DNA of 64,000 nucleotides from Mustelus asterias (lineage: Eukaryota), in contig NW_027590144.1 in the NCBI RefSeq assembly GCF_964213995.1, forward strand, positions 868,001-932,000, in the 5' to 3' direction. Made by a program: the position numbers and the translations under genes. Positions within the stretch are counted from its first letter, which is position 1. Each line of letters opens with the position of its first letter. The notes under the pieces were generated by a model that did not search any database, was not told the DNA's origin, and was given only the letters and a program-made list of their open reading frames with translations. Below, one piece after another: positions 44,293 to 62,724 of this stretch.

Positions 44293-44365
44293 GTTCCTGA
44301 AGTGTAGTTGTTATCACATTCGCCTCACACGCGAAAAGTCCCCGGTTCGAAACCAGGCAGAAACA
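44293..44365 (+). pseudogene. tRNA-Val(CAC), likely pseudogene
   Basis: Anticodon arm and B box intact; U8>A, D-loop GG>TG, acceptor and T-stem mismatches. Confidence 0.8.
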
Positions 44366-45365
44366 CTGTTGGATCGTTGTCATTAAGCAAGAGCGAAGTC
44401 TGCATGATGTAAGTTCATAGCTCAACCTCATGCGAATCCGATATCACGGTCATGTTATATTGACTTTGATCTCGGCCTCAAAAGCATTTCGGAAAGTTAG
44501 AAATGCTGTCTTTGAGGACGCAGGGAATAAAGAACTCCATTGTTTGTACACATATTCGCAACTCGTGCAGTCCACAAATTAATTTAATGGGTTTAGATGT
44601 GCAGACTGACGTAGTTAATCACCATCTGAAATATATCGAATAGTATTGTGTGCTCATAAAGACAGACACAATTGAAAGTCAAACTGAACTGGAGGAAATG
44701 GGCGCATTTCACAGAAGCACCTTTGTAAAATTGCGCTTCACAGTAAAGAAATAGTTAAAACGACTCAGACAAATGTGGAGATCGAGATTCAGTGCGGACC
44801 TCCTGGACTTCCGATAGATGGACGAGATTTAGGCGCCAGAATACTTCACAGACAGACGAAAGAGGATTCAAGTACATTTTATTTTCTTTAAAGGATGAAT
44901 GTGGTCAATCTCAAATAAATATCATGGCATGGGCATTACGCAGTGACTCTATTTCTTTCGTTGGTCAGACATGTTTGCAAGACAATGTTGTATATTTCAG
45001 AGAAATTCAATTCAGAATGAGGACATCTGTTTTAAATAAACGTATTGAAATTAAATGTTGAATAACTACAAATATTTGATATAACTGTTTGAAATTATTT
45101 GACGGAAGATGAGAATGATGTATGAATGATTGAACAGAAGTCATTGCCACCTGAGACATTTGCCAGACGAACGCTTTTTAATTTTGAAGTTCAAGATAAG
45201 TTGAGATATCAGGTTGAAAGTAACGGATTTGTTCTTCCATTAAGTGACATGGACCCTCAATGTGACCATGAGAACCTGCAGCAACACAATTTACTTCAAC
45301 ATTGTAGTCAGGCCAATTGGCGGCGTGGCGCAGACAGGCAGATTTGCTCCAGCATACTTCGAGCT

Positions 45366-45438
45366 GTTTCTGTAGTGTCGTGGTTATCACGTTCGCCCAA
45401 CACGCGCAAAGTCCCCTGTCGGAAACCGGGCAGAAATA
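45366..45438 (+). pseudogene. tRNA-Val(AAC) pseudogene
   Basis: Val body with T loop destroyed (tgtcggaaa). Confidence 0.8.
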
Positions 45439-46594
45439 TTCACTAAGCTTTCTCATGTCGGGTAAGGGTAAATTGCTTGATTACAGTTTGTTGCTCAACA
45501 TTATCCGAATTTCGATGTCAAAGGCATGTTATCATTGCTCTGACATCACCCTCAAATGCTTTCTGTGAAATAAGAAACGCTTTTTTATTTGACGCACTGA
45601 CAGGAAATGTCGATTTTGACACCGAGCACTTATTCGCTTCTCGTTCAGTCTACAACAGAATTTAATGGGTTTACAGGTGCAGACTAATATGGTTAATCGC
45701 CATCTGAAATATCTGACAGTAGTGTATGCTCAAAGAGACAGATACAAGTGATACTGTAAGTGAACGAGAGGAAATGGCGCACATTTCACAGAAGATCTAT
45801 TTTAAAATCGTTTTTCATCACTGAGAAACAGGAAAAGCCACTCAGACAGATGAGGGAATCGAGGCTCAGTGCGGATCGACTGGACTTTCCGGTAAAGGTC
45901 TGGAAGTTATGCGCATGAATGTTTCACGCCCATAATAAAAAAGGCTCAACTGTCACGAGCAGATAATGCTTGATTTTCCTCCATTTAAATGGAGTTGACT
46001 TTGTTTACAAGCTGAAGATAGTCAATCTCAAATTTGCGATCTGTATTGCCCGGTGATTCGCTTTGTTCTGTTGGTCATTTATGTTTGCAATTCAGTGATG
46101 TTCAATTTCAGAGATATTCAATTCATAATGAAGACATATGTGTTAAATAATACATTGATACTAAATATTGAAACAAATACAAATATGAGTACGATTGTAC
46201 AATGAGCTTTGATAAAGTGTCATCTGGTCTCGAAACGTCCGCCCTTTTCACTCCTTACAGGTGCTGCCAGACATTGTGAGATTTTGCAGCATTTTCTCTT
46301 TTCTCATCCGCAGTAATTTGTTTTCATTACTGAGTACAATTGATTGAGATTATTCGAAGAAAGAGGAAAATGATGCATTAACGAATGGGCAGAAATCATT
46401 GCCCCCTTAGATATTTGCCAGAAGAACGATTTTGAATTTTGATGTACGGAATAAGTCGTACAATCAGATTGAAAGTGACGGTTATCTTCCTGAATTCAGT
46501 CACATGGGCTCTCCGTCTCACCACCGGAACCTGCAGCATCACAGCGGAGTTGAACATTGCAGCCAGGCAGATTAGCTCCAATACTATTCCAGCT

Positions 46595-46667
46595 GTTTCT
46601 GTAGTGTAGTGGTTATCGCATTCGCTTAACACGCGAAAAGTCACCGGTTCGAAACCAGGCAGAAACA
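46595..46667 (+). tRNA. tRNA-Val(AAC), one of the best-preserved copies, possibly a pseudogene
   Basis: Acceptor GTTTCTG/CAGAAAC and anticodon arm pair; A and B boxes intact; two T-stem mismatches. Confidence 0.7.
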
Positions 46668-46882
46668 TTCATTAAGCTTCCTCATGTTGTGTAAGGGAAA
46701 ATTGCTCGATTCCAGTTTGATACTCATCATTGTCCGAGTCTCGATGTTAAAGACATTTTCTCATTGCTCTGACATCACCCTCAAATGCTTTCTGTGAAAT
46801 AAGAAACTTTTTGTTTTGACGCACTTACAGGAAATTTCGATTTTGACACCGAGCACTTATTCGCATCTCGTTCAGTCTCCAA

Positions 46883-47958
46883 CAGAATTTAATGGGTTTA
46901 TAGGTGCAGACTAATATGGTTCGTCACCATCTGAAATATCTGACAGCAGGGTGTGCTCAAAAAGACAGATACAAGTGAGACTCAAGCTTTCTCATGTGGG
47001 AGGGAAAATTGCTTGTTTTCAGTTGTTGCTCATCATTATCCGAGCCTCGATGTGAAAGGCATGTTATCATTAACAGTGTAGTGGTTGTCACGTTCACCTA
47101 ACACGCGGAAAGTTCCGGTTCGAAACCTGGCAGAAACATAGGGCAGCACAGTGGCACAGTAGTTAAGAGTGCTGCCTCGAAGCGCCAGGGTCCTAGATCC
47201 AATTCCCGATTTGGATCACTGTCTGTGCGGAGTCTGCATCTTCTCCCCGTGTCTGTGTGGGTTTCCTCCGGGTGCTCCGGTTTCCTCCCACAGTCTGAAA
47301 GACATGCTGGCATCACCCTCAAATGCTTTCTGTGAAATAAAAAACGCTTTTTTTTGACGCACTGACAGGAAATTTCGATTTTGACACCGAGCACATGTTC
47401 GCATCTCGTTCAGTCTACAGCAGAATTTAATGGGTTTATAGGTGCAGACTAATATGGTTCGTCACCATCTGAAATATCTGACAGCAGGGTGTGCTCAAAA
47501 AGACAGATACAAGTGAGACTCAAGCTTTCTCATGTGGGAGGGAAAATTGCTTGTTTTCAGTTGTTGCTCATCATTATCCGAGCCTCGATGTGAAAGGCAT
47601 GTTATCATTAACAGTGTAGTGGTTGTCACGTTCACCTAACACGCGGAAAGTTCCGGTTCGAAACCTGGCAGAAACATAGGGCAGCACAGTGGCACAGTAG
47701 TTAAGAGTGCTGCCTCGAAGCGCCAGGGTCCTAGATCCAATTCCCGATTTGGATCACTGTCTGTGCGGAGTCTGCATCTTCTCCCCGTGTCTGTGTGGGT
47801 TTCCTCCGGGTGCTCCGGTTTCCTCCCACAGTCTGAAAGACATGCTGGCATCACCCTCAAATGCTTTCTGTGAAATAAAAAACGCTTTTTTTTGACGCAC
47901 TGACAGGAAATTTCGATTTTGACACCGAGCACATGTTCGCATCTCGTTCAGTCTGCAG
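46883..47958 (+). repeat. Near-perfect 538-bp tandem duplication containing a 5'-truncated tRNA-Val and a SINE head
   Basis: Identical ORF translations offset by 538 (47098/47636, 47169/47707). Val remnants at 47073-47138 and 47611-47676; SINE heads at 47141-47310 and 47679-47848. Confidence 0.92.
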
Positions 47959-48495
47959 CAGAATTTAATGGGTTTATAGGTGCAGACTAATATGGTTAAT
48001 CACCATCTGAAATATCTGACAGTAGTGTGTGCTCAAAAAGTCAGATACAAGTCATACTGCAAGTGAACTAGAGGAAATGGCGCACATTTCACACAAGATC
48101 TATTTTTAAATCGTTTTGCATCACTGAGAAACAGGAAAAGCCATTCAGACAGATGAGGGAAGCGAGATTCAGTGCGGATCTACAGGACTTTCCGGTTAAG
48201 GTCCGGAAGTTATGCGCATGAATGTTTCACGCCCATAATAAAACAAGCTCAAGTGTTACGAACAGATAATTCTTGATTTTTCTCCACTTAAATGGAGTTG
48301 ACTTTGTTTAAAAGCTGACGATAGTCAATCTCAAAATTGCGGTCTGTATTACCCGGTGATTCGCTTCCTACTGTTGGTCAGTTATGTTTGCAATTCAGTG
48401 ATGTTCAATTTCAGAGATATTCAATTCATAATGAAGACATATGTGTTAAATAATGCATTGATACTAAATAGTGAAACAAATACTGAGTACAATTG

Positions 48496-48625
48496 TACAA
48501 TGAGCTTTGATAAAGTGTCATCTGGACTCGAAACGTCCGCCCTTTTCACTCCTTACAGATGCTGTCAGACATTGTGAGATTTTGCAGCATTTTCTCTTTT
48601 CTCATCCGCAGTAATTTGCTTTTAT
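48496..48625 (+). mobile_element. 130-bp Penelope-associated short insertion with 15-bp TSD (also at ~46197-46326, ~49718-49847, ~50501-50630)
   Basis: tactgagtacaattg occurs at 48481-48495 and 48626-48640. The insert contains a degenerate hammerhead (ttgataaagtgtcatctggactcgaaacgtc). Confidence 0.7.
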
Positions 48626-48892
48626 TACTGAGTACAATTGATTGAGATGATTCGAAGAAAGCTGAAAATGATGCATTAACGAATGGGCAGAAACCATTGC
48701 TCCCTTAGATATTTGCCAGACGAACGATTTTAAATTATGATGTTCGGGATAAGTCGTACAATCAGATTGAAAGTAACGGTTATCTTCCTGAATTCAGTGA
48801 CATGGGCTCTCAGTCTCACCATTGGAACCTGCAGCAACACAGCGTAGTTGAACATTGCAGACAGGCAGATTTGCTGCAGGTGTGTTTAAGCT

Positions 48893-48965
48893 GTTTCTGT
48901 AGTGTAGTGGCTATCACGTTCACCTAACACGCGAAAAGTCCCCGGTTCGAAACCAAGCAGAAACA
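48893..48965 (+). pseudogene. tRNA-Val(AAC), likely pseudogene
   Basis: A and B boxes intact; anticodon-stem and T-stem mismatches. Confidence 0.78.
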
Positions 48966-50079
48966 TTCATTAAGCTTCCTCGTGTCGTGCAAGGGGAAAT
49001 TGCTTGATTCTAGTTTGGTGCTCATCATTATCCGAGCCTCGATGTGAACGGCATGTTATCATTGCTCTGACATCACCCTCAAATGCTTTCTGTGGAAGAA
49101 GAAACGTTTGTTTTGACGCACTGACAGGAAATTTCGATTTTGACACCGAGCACTTGTTCGCATCTCGTTCAGTCTACAACAGAATTTTATGGGTTTATAG
49201 GTGCAGACTAATATGATTAATCACCATCTGAAATATCTGATAGTAGTATGTGCTCAAAAAGACAGACACAAGTGATACTGCAAGTGAACTAGGGGAAATG
49301 GCGCACATTTCACAGAACATCTATTTTTAAATCCTTTTTCATCACTGAGAAACAGGAAAAGCCACTCAGACAGATGAGGGAATCGAGACTCAGTGCGGAT
49401 CTACAGGACTTTCCGGGTAAGGTCCGGAAGTTATGCGCATGAATGTTTCACGCCCATAATAAAAAAAGGCTCAAGTGTCACGAACAGATAATTTTTGATT
49501 TTTCTCCATTTAAATGGAGTTGACTTTGTTTAAAAGTTGACGATAGTCAATCTCAAATTTGCGATCTGTATTACCCGGTGATTCGATTCGTTCTGTTGGG
49601 CAGTTATGTTTGCAATTCAGTGATGTTCAATTTCAGAGATATTCAATTTATAATCAAGACATATGTGTTAAATAATGCATCGATACTAAATAGTGAAACA
49701 AATACTGAGTACAATTGTACAATGAGCTTTGATAAAGTGTCACCTGGACTCGAAACGTCCGCCCTTTGCACTCCTTACAGGTGCTGTCAGACATTGGGAG
49801 ATTTTGCAGCATTTTCTCTTTTCTCATCCGCAGTAATTTGCTTTTATTACTGAGTACAATTGATTGAGATTGTTCGAAGAAAGATGAAAATGATGCACTA
49901 ATGAATGGGCTGAAATTATTGCTCCCTTAGATATTTGCCAGACGAACTTTAAATTTTGATGTTCGGGATAAGTCGTACAATCAGATTGAAAGTAACGGTT
50001 ATCTTCCTGAATTCAGTGACATGGTCTCTCAGTCTCACCATCGGAACCTGCAGCAACACAGCGTAGCTGTGTTCAATCT

Positions 50080-50152
50080 GCTTCTGTAGTGTGGTGGTTA
50101 TCACGTTCGCCGAACACGCGAAAGGTCCCCGGTTCGAAACCAGGCAGGAACA
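50080..50152 (+). pseudogene. tRNA-Val(AAC), likely pseudogene
   Basis: U33>G, A14>G and acceptor mismatches. Confidence 0.78.
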
Positions 50153-50897
50153 TTCATTAAACTTCCTCATGTCGTGCAAGGGAAAATTGCTGGATTCCAG
50201 ATTGGTGTTTATCATTTATGCGCATGAACGTTTCACGCCCATTATAAAAAAGGCTCAAGAGTCACGAACAGATAACTCTTGAATTTCCTCCATTAAAATG
50301 GAGTTGACTTTTTTAAAAGCTGACGATAGTCAATCTCAAATTTGCGGTCAGTTTTATCCGAGGATACGCTTCGTTCTGTTGGGCAGTTTTGTTTGCAATT
50401 CAGTGATGTTCAATTTCAGAGATATTCAATTCAAAATGAAGACATATGTGTTAAATAATGCATTGATATTAAATATTGAAACAGATTCTGAGTACAATTG
50501 TACAATGAGCTTTGATAAAGTTTCATCTGGACTCGAAACGTCCGCCCTTTTCACTCCTTACAGGTGCTGGCAGACATTGTGAGATTTTGCAGCATTTTCT
50601 CTTTTCTCATCCGCAGTAATTTGCTTTTATTACTGAGGGCAATTGATTGAGATTATTCGATGAAAGCTGAAAATGATGCATTAATGAATGGGCAGAAACC
50701 ATTGCTCCCTTAGATATTTGCCAGCCGAACGCTTTTAAATTTTGATGTTCGGGATAAGTCGTGCAATCAGATTGAAAGTAACGGTTATCTTCCTGAATTC
50801 AGTGACATGGGCTCTCAGTCTCACCATCGGAACCTGCAGCATCACAGCGTAGTTGAACATTGCGGACAGGCAGATTTGCTCTGACGTGCTCGGCGCT

Positions 50898-50971
50898 GTT
50901 TCTATAGTGTAGTGGTTATCACGTTAGCTTCACCTGCAAAACGTTTCCTTGTTCGAAACGGGGCAGAAACA
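50898..50971 (+). pseudogene. tRNA-Val(CAC) pseudogene
   Basis: Val 5' half intact; anticodon stem and T stem degenerate. Confidence 0.75.
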
Positions 50972-51427
50972 TTCGTTAAGCTTTCACATGTCGGGTAAGG
51001 GAAAATTGCTTGTTCTCAGTTGAATGCTCAACATTATCGGAACTTCAATGTTAAAGGCATGTTTTCATTTCTCTGACATCACCCTCAAATGCTTCTGTGT
51101 AATAAGAAGCGCTTTTTATGACGCACTGACAGGAAATTTCGATTATGTCACCGAGGACATCTTCGCATCTCGTTCAGTCTACAACAGAATTTAATGGGTT
51201 TATAGGTGCAGACTAATATGTTTAATCACCATCTGAAATATCTGATAGTAGTGTGCGCTCAAAAAGACAGATACAAGTGATACTCTAAGTCAACTAGAGG
51301 AAATGGCGCACATTTCACAGAAGATTCTTTTTAAAAATCGTTTTTCATCACTAAGAAACAGGAAAAGCCACTCAGACAGATGAGGGAATCGAGACTCAGT
51401 GCGGATCTACTGGACTTTCCTGTAAAC

Positions 51428-51803
51428 ATTGAATTTCGTGAATTTTGTTGTTTCAACTGTGGATGTCGTATCTGCAACGTTCACATTTGCATCACTTCCA
51501 GTGTTTTCCTCAGCTGAGATTCCAGACTCTGTTGTCTCAGTAGCAGATGCACCAGGGTGTGGTTGTTTTGGACTTTGGTGATCACCTTGGGTTTGTCGAT
51601 CCTTATCTGTTTCTGGAGTAAAGTAACTGTCAACGTTTGGTAATTTTTTGAGTTGCTCTTCAAGCGAGTGCTTTCTTTTTCTTTTCTGGTATCTGCTCTT
51701 AAATGTTCTCTTCATTGTAAACCTTCTGAAATTTTGTGAGGCCCCTGCGGATTGTGAGGCCCTAAGCTGTAGCTTATTTAGCTTATGCCTAAATCCGGCA
51801 CTG
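51428..51803 (-). mobile_element. hAT-type DNA transposon 5' end (TIR plus transposase N-terminus)
   Basis: The minus strand starts cagtgccggatttagg (hAT-like TIR) and has subterminal gggcctcaca repeats. The frame from 51715 reads MKRTFKSRYQKRKRK..LKKLPNVDSYF. Confidence 0.6.
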
Positions 51804-51967
51804 GGATCACCGTTACTCATCTCTGAAAATAGACAACAGACACGCAGCGTGTTAGAAGGAGCAACAACAGCGGAATAATGGCCCAGAGATGGAAATGGGC
51901 AATGAATATGGTGATTGGCGGATTTCAGACAAAGGTTCAAAATGGCCGCCCTGTGATCAGGACAATA

Positions 51968-52131
51968 TGTGGAGATGCCGGCGTTGGACTGGGGTAAACA
52001 CAGTAAGAAGTTTAACAACACCAGGTTAAAGTCCAACAGGTTTATTTGGTAGCTTTTGTGGCTGAGAAAAGGTGTGGCTTTTGCTACCAAATAAACCTGT
52101 TGGACTTTAACCTGGTGTTGTTAAACTTATT
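51968..52131. mobile_element. Inverted Penelope termini with 12-bp TSD, forming a 46-bp perfect inverted repeat
   Basis: atcaggacaata at 51956-51967 and 52132-52143; arms at 52008-52053 and 52083-52128. Confidence 0.85.
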
Positions 52132-55560: not shown

Positions 55561-55648
55561 TTCATTCTTGGATCAATATGTCTACAGCAGTCCCAATGAG
55601 TGTTGCAACATTTCAAGAGAGTCCTATTGTGTCCAACGGACGCCAGCA

Positions 55649-55721
55649 GTTTCTGTAGTGTCATGGTGGTTGCATTCGCCTCACACACGAAAGGTTCGTA
55701 GTTCAAAACCATGCCGAAATA
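55649..55721 (+). pseudogene. Outlying tRNA-Val(CAC) pseudogene with partial array unit (to ~55965)
   Basis: Val body plus the downstream array spacer. Confidence 0.72.
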
Positions 55722-56377
55722 TTATTAAAATTTGTTCATTAAGGGTGAGGGAAGTTTACATGATTGGAATTTGTTGTTGAACATTATCTGAAACTCAATA
55801 TTAATGTTATCTTTGCGCTGACCTCGGCCTCAAAATCTTACAGCAAAATCAGAGATCTTGTATTTTTATGACGCAATGAGAGGAAATAGATGTTGCTGTT
55901 TTGACACCGTGGACATATCAGCAACTCATTCAGACCACAACAGAATTTAATGGGTTTGTAGGTGCAGGTCCGCCGAGGCAGCATGGTGTGTGACCATCCG
56001 GTGGTGTTAATTGACCTTCCCCCAAACGGTGAACACATTCTTGGTTCCGATTACATGAATAAATGTAATTTTTCATTTGATCCAGCTAATCGATGCTTTT
56101 GGCAGAAAGTGCCCACGTTCCTGGCAGATAATTTAAATTATGGGGGAAATCCGCATGAGTGTCAGGTTATAGGCTATAGGTTATAACTTATAGCCGCAAA
56201 GGACCCCACAGGTCCGTTTATCCCGAAACAACAGGATACATGGTCAGGGACAAAACAGATAGCCACCCAATGGACAGACCCAGCCATGAGAATTTATGTC
56301 GGCGGTTATCCAAAATAGTGGATGGGACCAGAATCACAGGATGTGGCATTTATGTGGAACATGAAAGGGACAGCCAC

Positions 56378-57186
56378 GAATGGGTAACTAACAGAAAGCA
56401 AAGAGTGGGGGTAAATGGGTGTTTTTCTGGTTGGCGATCAGGGACAGGTGGTGTGCCTCAGGGATCAGCGTTGGGACCGCAATTGTTTACCATTTACATG
56501 GATGATTTGGAGTTGGGGAACAAGTGTAATTGCAGATGACACTCAGATGGGTGGAAGAGCAAAGTGTGCAGAGGACGCTGAAAGTTTGCAAAGGGATATA
56601 GGTAATCCAAGTGAGTGGGCGAGGGTCTGGCAGATGGAGTACAATGTTGGTAAACGTGAGGTCATCCATTTTGGTAGGAATAACAGCAAAATGGACTATT
56701 ATTTAAATGGTAAAAAAATGCAGCATGCTTCTGTGCAGAGGGACCTGGGTGTCCTTGTACAGGAATCTCAAGGAGATGGTTTGCAGGTGCAACACGTAAT
56801 TAAGAAGGCAAATGGAATTTTGTTCTTCATTGCTCGAGGGATAGAGTTTAAAAACACCGAGATTATGTTGCAACTGTATAAAGTGCTGCTGAGGCCACAA
56901 CTGGAGTACTGTGTACAGTTTTGGTCTCTTATTTGAGAAAGGATATACTGGATCTGGAGAAGGTGCAGAGGAGATTCACTAGGTTGATTCCGGCGTTGAC
57001 AGGGTTGGCTTCTGAGGAGAGACTGAGTGGACTGGGGTTATACTCATTGGAATTCAGAAGAATGAGGGGAGATCTTAGAGAAACATATAAGATTATGAAG
57101 GGAATCGATAAGAGAGAAGCAGGGAAGTTGTTTCCACCGGCGAGTGAAACTAGAACTAGGGGGCATAGCCTCAAAATAAGGGGAAG
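56378..57186 (+). mobile_element. CR1 fragment inserted in the ERV RNase H region
   Basis: [22 protein letters not shown] and RPQLEYCVQFWS. Confidence 0.9.
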
Positions 57187-57669
57187 CCAACATACACTCC
57201 GATAGCATGTAAGCGTGCAACAGCCTGACTGAGTTCCTACCGTTATGGGAAGCCAGAGTCTTCGTCTCTGCGGACAGAAGGGCCTATCGTTATCCTGCCT
57301 ATTGAAATATGTTCTGTAGGCCACCGAAGGGCGAACATATGGAATTATTAAGGTTTGAAGCCACCACAGGACCTCCCCACCTGGCAACTGTAAGGCCGAT
57401 GCATTAGCCAAGGCCAGTGCCCGTACGGGACAATTTTGGCAGCCACCTGTAGGAGAGCAAGTAAACGCTGTGGCCATTTGGCAAATTAATATAGACGACC
57501 TGGTCCAGGCACAGCGCACTGACAGTTCCCAAAAACAAATTTTAGAAGGAGTCTACCCAACCCCATATGAGAAATGGAAGGACAAAATACAGATTGAGGA
57601 TGGTTTGATATTAAAGGCAGGCACATACGTAATCCCTACCCTAGACAGAAATCAGCTTATCTACCAGTA

Positions 57670-58680
57670 GCATGGCAGACATGTCCCAGGGCATAGAGAC
57701 AACAATCGAGCGATTAAAATAATTATGTTGGTGGCCCGAACTGCACAACGACATTATATCGACAATTGTTTAATTTGTTCCCAGAATAACCCCAATAGAT
57801 ATGCAGAAAAGCGGGAGCTAAGGCACACATACCCAGTAGAAGGCCTTTGGACAAATCTCCAAATTGATTATATCGGCCCACTACCATCATGTAGGAACGG
57901 ATTTAAATACGTCCTAGCAATGATGGACACTCAAACCAAATGGGTTCCCACAAAATCCAACACAGCTAAGGCCACCGCAAAGATATTAGCCCAGCAGGTA
58001 TTTATACGATGGGGTCTTCCCCACAGCATAGAGTCCGACCAAGGGACACATTTCACAGGGCAGGTGATGCAGAACGTTATGGCTATGTTTGGCATCAAGC
58101 AGAAATTCCATATTGCCTACCATCCACAATCCAGCGGATTCGTAGAGCGCATGAACCGAACGCTAAAAGGGATCATTAGAAAGACAGTGCAGCAAAACAA
58201 CGCAACATGGGATACAGTACTTCCCTTTGCCCTCATGATTGTACGCAACACCATTTCCAGTTCTACTGGGTTCACCCCCCTTACATTAATGACTGGCCGA
58301 CCTATGAGGGGAGCTGAATACTTACTGTGGTTTGACTTAACTGAGCCTGCTATCACAGCGCTCACCCATGAGAAAGCCGTCCAGCAGATAACCGAAAACA
58401 TTAAAGCAGCCGAGTGAGCCGCGGCTGTCCGATTAGGAGTTAAAAAAGAAACAGAGCAAGGAATATTTCAATAAAAGGGTACACCCGGTAGAATATACGG
58501 CTGGCCAGCAGGTAATGATTTCCCTCTCCAACCCCAGTTCTTTCATGTCCCCGAGATATGCAGGTCCGCACACCATCACCGACAAATTAAGCCCCTCCCT
58601 CAGTGTATAAGGTCCTGATCGCCAACAGGAAAACCGGTTGGTTCCACGTCAATCAACTGAAAGCTTACGGGACTCAGAAT
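57670..58680 (+). pseudogene. Retroviral-type integrase (HHCC, DDE core, GPY/F-like C-terminus), frameshifted
   Basis: CLIC; WTNLQIDYIGPLP; IESDQGTHFTG; YHPQSSGFVERMNRTLK; PRYAGPHTI; WFHVNQLK. Confidence 0.9.
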
Positions 58681-60129
58681 AATCACTTCCACCATCTCAC
58701 ATTCGAGATAGGGGAAGATGACAGCCTCACCGGAAATATATTTCCACAGACACGTTCTCATCCACTTTCAGGTTCAGACCAGACGCTTACCCCTACCACG
58801 CTACAGCCCAGAGCCTCGTTCACACCTGAAGTGCCTCGAGGGGTACTGATCGACTTACACATAACAGGAGACTTGCGCACCCTCGAGGGCTGGCGCGACT
58901 CGCTAGATATCGGCCATTGAAGCATTATGGATTCTCCCATAAACATAAGCCTTAATAGCCACCGATGTAACAGGGAGGCCCTGACTAAACGACACCGGGT
59001 TATTTGATGGGGACACCCGGTGCTGCATCCCCCACCTGGATAAGGGACCAGACACGTACATTAATTAGAATGGAAGACGACGATAAAGGACTCCCGAACC
59101 CTGATCCAAACGCACACCCCACAGTGCAGTCCAACAAACAGACACGGGTATGGAGGCCAGGTGAGAAGATAATGATGGAGTCCCATGAGACAAATGATTC
59201 AGAAGATGAGCCTCTGTTGGGCAATTTGTTAACGGAAATGCTGAATGAATGGATCTAAGATGCTCCAAATAGTGAAATTCAGCCTACAGTCCAGACCAAT
59301 GCAAGGTACAAGAATATCTGATGGAAGCAGCCATTTAAAACCCCGCAACCTGCAGGTCCACCGTGACCGTCCGACAGTAAAATGTCCACGGTTAAGTCCA
59401 ACCGACTCATTTCCCATACCATTTTTATACTGCTCGTACGATTAACCGGGTTATTTACACAATCCGATGCTCTTTGGCCACTTTTCTCTCGTTAAGAGAT
59501 CATTAAGGCAACAATGCAAATCTTTGAGGCAGCTATTCTCAATTTTAACAGAATTGAGGCGGCTGTGCTAAATTTTAAAATCGTCAAGCCGACTGGGCTA
59601 CATTTTCAACTCTTAGAGGCACTTGTGCTAAATTTCAAATGCGTTCTGCCTTCAAATTCTAAGACACTCATGGAATGGACACCTCTTCACGTCATTACAG
59701 ACCGACTGCAGTGCTATTCGAATCCCTATGACTAATGGTGACTGCTACGAGAATAAAACAGGCTGCCTTGATTTTGCTGGCCAATTAAACAAGCTCATTT
59801 CCAACCACTCCACGACTCGTCCATTTATCGATCTGAACAAAAACGTTGCTCGGTAATGGTTCACAATTAGAATAAAGATTATGACACGTAAGTGACAATT
59901 GATATATCTGGGTCCTCCTGACCGCACCATTGTCGATAGTGTTCAAAACAAAAAGGGGGGGGGGGCATTGACAGTTTAAATATATGCATATACATCAAAT
60001 ATTGGATGCGATAACAGCAGAAATTACATTGATCTCCTCAAGACAACGTCGGACGGCGACAGAGATGCAACCTACGATCTACTCATCGGACTCATCATCG
60101 GGATAAGCACGCAGGACACTCCAAGCAAG

Positions 60130-61842
60130 GTGAACTTGTGGTATCCCAGTTATTTATGGTTTGCCCCACATGACGCTGGGGAATGTGAGGATGGCGTGTT
60201 ATGGGTGCATCCCGATAAGAGTATAATGTTTGGGTGTAACAACTAGCGGCTGATACACACAAAAACAAATGGCTGTTCAGCTGAATGTTATCTGAGTGTC
60301 ACCGTCGCAGGGGATTGGTGGGGATTTTAAAATAATGGATGCCCTGAAATTGGATGTCTGGCCAACAGCCCAGAAAAAGGATTAGAGCTCAGGCAGCAGT
60401 GCCCCGGGACACTCATGGAGAGGAACTTTGCATTGTACGAAATAAGAACTGGGCCGAAGCCAACCCCAGACCCATCCCACTCGATTTGTCCTGGAGCCAC
60501 CCCGGACCACAGAATGGATTGATACTAAAACACACAGGGGAAACCCTGTATGACAACATCCACCACAAATTGGTACCTGTGGTGGTGGATATAGCTGGGA
60601 CCCAACTGCTAGAGTGGTGCTCTCCCCAAATTAAGAGATTAACATCCACTTGACTCGCAGACTGTTAGGATGGAAGAGAAGAATGGATGAAAGGCAGGAA
60701 AGATCCAAGAGGGAGTTAGTCAATGACATGGCCACAGCATACGGGGCAGGGATAGCAAACAACAATGCCCGATTGAATTAGCCGACCTGGACAGTAAAAT
60801 TAGGATTCTGACCCAACAGGTTAAACAGACACGAAATTCCATTAATGAGGACAATCGGCAAGATGCTGAAGGGGAACTGACTGGGAACGCAGCCAGCAGC
60901 CACATGGTCGCTGTATTAGAAGGACACGTCAAGACAATCAATCAAATTATCAGGCAAAAATTAGAGGACGGTGACATAATGTCATAATAAATAAAGTAAT
61001 AATTCATAATGTCGGGACCGGGTCTATGAAGTGGAAAATACAAGGACTATCCATGAGGATATCTGGATAGGGTACGACGGCACTTTATCGTACGCAGTGG
61101 AGAAAGAAGGCAGACTCATAGGCACTACTCTGGACAGGTGTCGGCAAACTGACGAAATAATCGCATACCCGTTCCTAGTTTACTTAAATGAGCATGCACT
61201 GTGTGGCTTCAGAATAAACACTAGCCTAAATTGCTCACTGGAAGCTTGTAGCCTGGACACAGACATAACTCGAGTGGCTAACAAGGGAGTAGGGACATAC
61301 TGTCTCACCACCTCCCTGAAATAATATCAGTATGGCGCGACACGTAGTAACATTACGAACACTCCATTCTGCATCAAACCAGACCTATCAGCCACGGTGG
61401 GCCTCATTCAACTCATAGACATTCATAAGAGCGAGAGGGTAGATTTGAACGCCACTGACGAGCTCCGACAGGCTCTAGGGGAATACCATGAGAAATATGA
61501 CACAAGCCTTAAACCCCTACCGGAGGAGTTGAAGCAGATTCGGGTAAAATTGGCTACAGCCCACAGAACCTTCACCAAAGTAATACAGCAGACCCAAGAG
61601 GTGAAAAGGGGAATTAAATAAATTAAAGTCACCTCTTGCTGGGATGACGTTTGGAACTGGGGCTCAAACATCAAATCCACCCATTTGTTCACATTATGTC
61701 AGACATGGCGGTATTACTGATTTTGTTCACCCTGGTATATCTAATCATCCTCACAGTCCAATTCAGCCGATGGAGAAAGGGGATCACCCGGAGGCAGGAC
61801 GTTGGGTCCGCTCTTGAACCACGGTCCCCTCTAATTCAGTAG
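60130..61842 (+). pseudogene. env-like class I fusion glycoprotein remnant
   Basis: Furin site RSKR 60701-60712; Ala/Gly-rich peptide ELVNDMATAYGAGIA; heptad; Cys-rich block 61031-61380; second heptad; WDDVWNW; TM MAVLLILFTLVYLIILTV; short tail. Confidence 0.7.
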
Positions 61843-62724
61843 AGCAATGTTTACAGGAAGCCTGCCATTTTGCGATTTGTATTAATGAACCGTTGGAAAT
61901 CCGACTATCAAAATGTGCCTCAGATCTGCGATACCTTATTGGAATGTTTGTTTGAATGTTGGTTTATAATTAGCTTATTGTAATAATGGTGTTTAGAATA
62001 TGTGATTGCTTGTATTTGTAGAGTGTTGCTCTCTGTAGTTTCTGGAATGTAAATATGTTGTAGAAATGTGTCATTGCTGTGCATGCCAATGCCTGGGCCT
62101 TGCTTGACTGTTGAGTGACTGTGGAATTCCTGACAGATACTGGTCCTGAGTTTGTGATCCATCACGCTTCGCATTCAGGATCAAAGAGGGGACTGTGGCC
62201 AAACGGCCCACCTAAAATGGCGATTTATCAAGCACTCCAGGACAATTGGGCAAGAACTAAAACAGCAGGCTGCAGCCGAAAAGACGCTGCAATATCAACT
62301 GAAGCCACATACAACAACAAAGCCCATTGAACTTGCGCCGTGCATGTAAGGAAACATGCCCAGTTTCTTCACAGTGCTGTTTTCAATCAGAAATGGGTGG
62401 AGACAGAGTCTCACTTTGCTCTTTTGCAGAGTCCAATTGGAGATTAACACTTTGTTGACCTGAGGTAAATTTGCTGGGAAGCTATGTCCTCTTTAGGAGC
62501 CCCTTCTACTTGAAGTAGAATGTTGCCAGCTTCACCAATCTTTCCAAAAGTCTGACCATTCTCATCATAAGCTCCGCTGGCTCACCCCATCTTTCCCTCC
62601 CTCAAAAACCAATCACGAACTAAACAATATCGTCTCATGCCATTTTGCAACATCTTCAAGTCGCTTCATCTCTTCAAAGCCAGCACCCAGTGCTACACCA
62701 GGCCAAGCTGCCACTTTCAACCCT

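Follow-up and report, generated by a model that had tools for sequence, protein, structure and literature searches.

A truncated provirus in Mustelus asterias, probably from a multi-copy shark retrovirus family with a canonical reverse transcriptase and a likely F-type envelope

We analyzed a 64,000-nucleotide stretch of Mustelus asterias DNA (NCBI RefSeq assembly GCF_964213995.1, contig NW_027590144.1, positions 868,001 to 932,000 of the forward strand; hereafter, the window), in which an initial annotation had reported a lokiretrovirus-like endogenous viral element at 55963..62340. At 55962-62285, on the plus strand, the window carried the 3′ two-thirds of a provirus, with parts in retroviral order far beyond chance. 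With a probability of roughly 0.8, we read this remnant as a truncated provirus, now dead, from a many-copy family of shark retroviruses that combines a canonical reverse transcriptase (RT), of the snakehead retrovirus (SnRV)-related class III grade, with a likely F-type envelope (Env). The annotated series of protease, RNase H, integrase, env, polypurine tract, and the TG of a 3′ long terminal repeat (LTR) was confirmed in full; the annotated start was also recovered, at 55962, whereas the annotated end was not, as LTR homology stopped at 62285. A protein labelled Mustelus asterias matched a quarter of the RT-tether query at 94% identity, and 68 aa of the window env matched one labelled Scyliorhinus torazame at 75%. 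These named relatives support a shark host, in agreement with the annotation.

The RT placement was determined on sister copies in a tree of 63 rows, made up of five shark rows and 58 of 265 retrieved proteins, with Gypsy as the outgroup; an integrase tree used 45 of these proteins, and those left out of the trees were for the most part Gypsy-like sequences, gene models with several RTs, or redundant entries. Reference rows were obtained by searching 1.8 billion representatives, which returned six Loki-motif proteins and the Pol of feline foamy virus (FFV). The group labels of the trees were motif based and set on unnamed proteins, except for FFV and one lokiretrovirus reference, named Labeo rohita, which agreed by eye with the published Loki-Lro row. 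The shark rows fell inside the canonical retroviruses (support 100/99) and the lokiretroviruses outside them (100/100), and a C20 mixture model repeated this split with supports of 92 and 99. Furthermore, the approximately unbiased (AU) test rejected monophyly of the shark rows with the lokiretroviruses (p=2.2e-6), as well as monophyly of the wider clade with them (p=0.002), this clade having been defined after the tree was seen. The wider clade joined shark, amphibian, and coelacanth RTs in 20 rows (90/90); the closest pol proteins were amphibian and coelacanth ones named "NYNRIN-like" (53-58% identity). That these top matches are not lokiretroviruses was first shown by Loki peptide words taken from them, which were absent from the Loki supplement. 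In RT identity, the SnRV-like row came highest among the reference groups with 48%, against 38% for FFV; the amphibian and coelacanth relatives stood at 50-58%. The shark family carried the RT motif PQGFHNSP, as in the SnRV row, whereas PFG(Y/L) preceded YVDD in 24 of 24 published lokiretrovirus rows. A grouping within Metaviridae, which the initial annotation had named as fatal to its reading, was not found, since the RT was split from Gypsy at 100/100 and the family has a dual RNase H; in the integrase phylogeny that the annotation had proposed, a polytomy was obtained. Lokiretroviruses are defined by their RT (PMC7947760). Because the family RT, as placed by these trees, sits inside the canonical retroviruses, the family is not a lokiretrovirus; the RT also lies outside class I. 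The proposed chondrichthyan lokiretrovirus was thus refuted at the RT level, and the statement that the element is not of gamma or epsilon type was upheld.

The envelope of the family was characterized on a natural open reading frame (ORF) of 685 aa from the sister family (family B), which was 39-58% identical to the window env fragments. Its basic cleavage site lies near residue 225; a fusion-peptide region rich in glycine and alanine and a long heptad repeat come next, and further toward the C terminus there are a beta/cysteine-rich central part, another heptad, and a transmembrane (TM) helix. It lacks CX6CC and has 19 cysteines, nine sequons, and about 400 aa from the cleavage site to the TM helix. 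In the ESM Atlas, the top cluster for env carried PF00523 (Fusion_gly) on 18% of its members, with a score of 0.95 and 208/256 features. By eye, the protein was collinear with three published lokiretrovirus Env in the basic site, heptad, helix, beta strands, and the pattern C..C-P..P..LCG.R..C. Judged by these likenesses, the family Env is likely, rather than shown to be, F-type, that is, a class I fusogen homologous to lokiretrovirus Env; the likeness is backed by a weak Atlas match and a cysteine pattern seen by eye. A word search of catalogued proteins with env gave none at E 0.01, and a profile search gave eight matches, all of them shark-like fragments (54-97%). Scans of viral and metagenome contigs yielded no usable relatives with env. 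A genome scan with PF00523 gave no match, a result that carries no weight either way, and a sequencing-run search listed no RNA holder, which says nothing on expression.

Several points weigh against this reading of RT and Env. The window itself has no RT, and the placement comes from sister copies that are 84-90% identical in nucleotides and linked to it through the integrase tree. The reference set contained one foamy row, which was long-branched, and one SnRV-like row, and was without fish foamy-like, Odin, class II, and NYNRIN rows. The shark, amphibian, and coelacanth clade stood in an open polytomy among SnRV, foamy, ERV-L/S, and class I, where the AU test left both SnRV sisterhood (p=0.475) and foamy sisterhood (p=0.33) unrejected. 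For Env, the score is one that the Atlas itself flags as weak, with a recognition value of 1591 that lies below 2300; taken by itself, the TM subunit reached 0.87 to both Baculo_F and Fusion_gly clusters. Pfam detected no Fusion_gly on the env ORFs up to E 1, the PDB profile search with env gave no match, and two AlphaFold env models were unusable (predicted local distance difference test scores of 32 and 33). The comparisons with lokiretrovirus Env and with the elephant-shark lineage CmiERV were made by eye and not computed.

The downstream parts of Pol bear on the reading that the element is a true chondrichthyan lokiretrovirus, which we regard as very improbable. Besides the F-like env, it is favored by an integrase 42-45% identical to lokiretroviruses versus 31-39% to SnRV, foamy, and class I, by tether scores of 81-112 bits to lokiretroviruses versus 71 to SnRV, and by an integrase tail with SH3_Tf2-1/p58_C matches like those of lokiretroviruses, where SnRV has MLVIN_C instead. 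Lokiretroviruses also resemble the family in a well-preserved tether and a coiled-coil Gag N terminus. However, the RT trees, the AU tests, and the PQGF motif contradict this reading, which could be rescued only by redefining lokiretroviruses by env, and the family differs further in a Gag with a zinc knuckle and a surface subunit of about 225 aa versus roughly 115-120 aa in the lokiretrovirus Env rows seen. The IDYIGPLP..SDQG integrase motif is not diagnostic for lokiretroviruses, because prototype foamy virus integrase shares it; the dual RNase H (tether plus RNase H) is common to all retroviruses and so not diagnostic either. As to the host, Wang and Han (2020, PMC7947760) reported lokiretroviruses in 0 of 6 chondrichthyan genomes, among them that of S. 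torazame, which holds a relative of the family env. As a variant of the preferred reading that concerns the origin of env, it is quite conceivable, at somewhat below even odds, that the family is a recombinant, a class III retrovirus that took env, and perhaps integrase, during co-infection with a lokiretrovirus or from some other virus bearing F. Among anamniote endogenous retroviruses (ERVs), env is often swapped, according to a survey of their envelopes (bioRxiv 2021.11.23.469661), and a relative in the pol clade, CmiERV lineage I, has a gamma-type env, so that env changed at least once in the clade. Any such transfer would be old, since env is too far from catalogued proteins for word or profile searches to reach beyond shark-like matches, and the integrase data, a polytomy in a tree without the CGIN1 row, leave both vertical descent (p=0.40) and a union of lokiretroviruses with the clade (p=0.34) unrejected. 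More tentatively, the shark, amphibian, and coelacanth clade might be a basal, slow-evolving branch of the canonical retroviruses that keeps an ancestral Loki-like tether and integrase together with an F-type Env shared with the lokiretrovirus ancestor. What probability these two origins of env leave over would go to a wrong F-type call.

Another reading, which we consider improbable, is that the family has been catalogued before among shark ERVs, for instance as ERV-Spuma.0-Sca, CmiFLERV, or a Repbase family, so that only its label would be new. SnRV-related shark ERVs have been published, namely the elephant-shark CmiERV lineage I (Han 2015, PMC4422223), and SnRV-related class III corresponds to the clade Huo ERVs (Xu et al. 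2018, PMC6001957). The scaffold-2 element of CmiERV lineage I, translated and compared by eye with the family, shares PQGFHNSP in RT, WTN.QID.IG in integrase, and, in Gag, a coiled coil, a WG.L.E.A..Y motif, and a CCHC knuckle, in addition to the shark host and a simple gag-pol-env layout. The pol lineage, as judged from these motifs, is therefore already known in cartilaginous fish, and the "related undescribed lineage" of the initial annotation holds for the combination of pol and env only. However, the CmiERV lineage I env is gamma type, with an immunosuppressive domain and CX6CC, neither of which the family env has, and its primer site differs from that of the family; the prospect of a catalogued shark ERV family, also raised by the annotation, is thereby borne out for pol, by eye, and not for env. 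Catshark elements are listed as Spuma-like, with ERV-Spuma.0-Sca clustering with fish foamy-like elements (PMC10699275). The best PDB matches of both RT and integrase were foamy proteins, a clade with foamy viruses was unrejected, and the IDYIGPLP..SDQG integrase motif and a long TM ectodomain are also features of foamy viruses and of the foamy-like ERVs of fish (FFV, CmiFLERV, and ERV-Spuma.0-Sca). The F/spike fold is ascribed to foamy Env as well, which would lessen the surprise of an F-type Env. On the other side stand the 38% RT identity to FFV, FLERV RT rows that differ in motif by eye, and the CCHC knuckle of the family Gag, which foamy Gag lacks. The anamniote envelope survey describes SnRV-related pol with gamma-type env and screened solely gamma- and beta-type env (bioRxiv 2021.11.23.469661). 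Within our literature search, which most subscription papers and Repbase lay outside, we came upon no publication that pairs an SnRV-related pol with an F-type env.

Returning to the preferred reading, a canonical shark retrovirus with a likely F-type Env, the family was recovered in many copies. With the window integrase as query, 150 of 150 scored candidates matched (22,146 first-look candidates), and env gave 99 matches. The copies formed two groups, family A, which includes the window copy (top copies about 80-87% identical in integrase amino acids), and family B (about 70%); in the integrase tree, the window copy clustered with family A copies at 100/94. The host-genome search that the initial annotation had suggested returned copies with gag, RT, both LTRs, and a primer-binding site (PBS), in the layout LTR-PBS-gag(zinc knuckle)-pol(protease, RT, tether, RNase H, integrase)-env-polypurine tract-LTR. 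By Pfam, the natural ORFs carried RVP, RVT_1, tether, RNase_H, Integrase_H2C2, rve, and zf-CCHC, the last in three Gag ORFs at E ~1e-8. Family B LTRs run TG...CA over about 820 bp and are flanked by 4-bp target duplications, perfect in 9 of 10, and the family B primer site is complementary to tRNA-Arg, with such a gene present in three of the four loci tested. A dense cluster of the tRNA-Arg 3′ end pattern lies at G000:C21:17753245-17837107 (23 among the 40 matches listed). Family A primer-binding sites were of two kinds (loci L023 and L027 versus L037 and L039), one of which we take to be a tRNA-Asn site. Many family B copies had no pol and held gag plus env or gag with a TM start only (L046, L054, L058; L078-L085, L087-L090, L093, L094); by analogy with the non-autonomous BHIKHARI elements, they would need pol in trans.

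The Kimura two-parameter (K2P) divergence of LTR pairs had medians of 0.060 in family A (8 pairs), 0.047 in env-bearing family B (4), and 0.010 in env-less family B (18), the copies having been chosen from top hits with long frames, which biases them to young ones. The env-less form is young and was amplified recently. With the shark rates assumed in the literature, 0.5e-9 (PMC10699275) and 2.2e-10 (PMC4422223), family A would be roughly 60-135 million years old, a soft figure. The infectious ancestor would have entered cells through a furin-cleaved Env, the fusion peptide and two heptad repeats of which would collapse as in paramyxovirus F, and, after reverse transcription primed by a tRNA, would have integrated into the germ line. 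The window copy would later have lost its 5′ half, RT, most of its 3′ LTR, and the coding capacity of env, and gained a long interspersed nuclear element (LINE) insertion.

The remnant was mapped with natural ORFs and the loci of sister copies by tblastn and blastn, and all features lie on the plus strand. Nothing of the 5′ LTR, the PBS, gag, or the protease N terminus is left in the window copy, which begins with a C-terminal piece of protease (55962..56105; tblastn E 1e-14 with the natural pol ORF of the sister family, and blastn 84-90% to family copies from 55962). A deletion junction at 56105..56106 follows, where RT and most of the tether are removed: pol residues ~100-578 were unmatched, and family copies hold 1429-1445 bp here, which sets the deletion at 1.43-1.45 kb. 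Among 40 hits scored, this junction occurred only in the window and in its 99.5% identical duplicate on G000:C138. The tether end and the N-terminal part of RNase H (56106..56381; tblastn and blastn) are broken by a non-viral LINE RT fragment (56382..57185), which is a gap against all family copies, is 72% identical to a LINE in locus L029, has a weak Pfam RVT_1 match, and shows inverted-repeat matches to other LINE copies within the window. No target-site duplication of at least 7 bp was found around this fragment, which we presume to be CR1/L2-like. The RNase H remainder, the linker, and the N-terminal region of integrase (57186..57670) contain stops and one frameshift, with the W..R.F.SAD motif of RNase H at ~57215-57245. 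The integrase core (57671..58414) is a 248-codon stop-free stretch with D,D,E (Pfam rve E 6.9e-11), in which IDYIGPLP, SDQGTHFT, and the third acidic residue are all present; its best PDB match was prototype foamy virus integrase (E 2.5e-21).

Downstream, the C-terminal domain of integrase and a long, proline-rich pol tail (58415..59255) are frameshifted, 73-80% identical in amino acids to family A copies, with an SH3_Tf2-1 match on a sister copy. A pol-env spacer (59256..60081) common to family copies (blastn 74-87%) had no Pfam match on its ORFs. The env remnant (60082..61840) retains the surface subunit, the cleavage site and fusion-peptide region near 60700-60770, a heptad repeat, a beta/Cys-rich region, a second heptad, and the TM, at 78-84% amino acid identity to a sister copy; it is damaged by five frame changes, about five stops, and the loss of about 95 codons near 60970-61019. 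The polypurine tract (62183..62193), the purine run itself being 62183-62192, stands directly before the 3′ LTR, which starts with TG at 62194 and of which the first 92 bp are kept (62194..62285), against about 800-860 bp for a full-length LTR in the family; these are 82-88% identical to both LTRs of family copies, with homology ending at 62275-62285. With RT and tether deleted, RNase H interrupted by the LINE, and frameshifts in env, the window copy cannot encode a working virus; to judge by its sequence, it is dead and encodes nothing functional now.

The region, flanks included (window 1-64000), had a 99.5% identical duplicate at G000:C138:836000-855999, which is a haplotype or a segmental duplication. 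A tandem array of tRNA-Val genes in repeated units (five called by ARAGORN) occupies 44293-50972, and a decayed unit of this array lies directly upstream of the provirus remnant, at ~55645-55720. A 237-codon ORF on the minus strand (51407-52120) and a repeat beginning where the LTR breaks off (62284-62609) had no Pfam match and are presumably pieces of DNA transposons.

The env-less sister subfamily, found within family B and outside the window, had reorganized its Gag. At 21 fetched family B loci, the start of Gag is encoded by 139 nt that derive from env of the same element, comprising the membrane-proximal region and TM (95% identical). This piece stands in frame in place of about 260 nt of gag, so that Gag no longer opens with matrix (examples: L065:7976-8144, minus strand; also L021, L035, and L078-L095). 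Hydropathy peaked at 2.5 in this TM-Gag versus 0.5 in the first 246 aa of the matrix form. With a junction-spanning query, all 150 scored candidates matched at no less than 85%, some of these being near-identical duplicates on small contigs, and the junction was bridged by single contigs from two other organisms. The TM is followed by basic residues, which would place Gag on the cytosolic side of a membrane. All examined TM-Gag loci keep only about 40 codons at the env start, and in 18 of 20 copies about 41 env codons are followed by a fragment of the endophilin-B1 BAR domain, which continues the env frame in 14 (L087:5243-5791 and L065:1464-1943, both on the minus strand). The fragment corresponds to residues 136-268 (E 6e-66), and because the match is continuous, capture from mRNA is suggested. 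In L091-L092 (G000:C2:70066000-70085999), TM-Gag elements also formed a tandem array, in which units 99.5% identical recur every 4.8 kb.

In the mouse intracisternal A-particle (IAP), the loss of env and an endoplasmic reticulum-targeting signal made a retrotransposon (PMC4643047). Family B resembles IAP in that env loss and a new membrane-targeting Gag N terminus go with amplification; it differs in that this N terminus comes from its own env TM and that a host endophilin-B1 fragment stands in the env frame. The literature within our search, which did not extend to most subscription papers, held no env TM anchor replacing the Gag matrix together with an endophilin-B1 capture. If true, this would be a self-made route to intracellular life, with the env anchor moved to Gag and a BAR-domain piece placed in the env slot, and would be a natural counterpart of the way in which IAP passed from virus to retrotransposon, reached through other molecular means. 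Whereas the copy in the window is only a ruin, the most surprising item of the analysis is the env-derived anchor in place of the Gag matrix, with the endophilin-B1 fragment.

For the envelope, Wang and Han listed four scenarios for the origin of retroviral Env (PMC7947760) and later favored independent acquisition, on the premise that lokiretrovirus and canonical Env are without similarity (PMC9040795). A retrovirus with a canonical RT and a Loki-like F-type Env would break this premise, and a comparison of env and RT trees could test the question. If the family did inherit its Env, the ancestor that lokiretroviruses share with retroviruses would already have had an F-type Env, and gamma- and beta-type Env would be later replacements, which would contradict the independent-acquisition model preferred in PMC9040795. 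An F-like env with a NYNRIN-like integrase, as in this family, does not identify a lokiretrovirus, and the F-type envelope would have a greater age, or move more readily between retroviruses, than the published models suppose.

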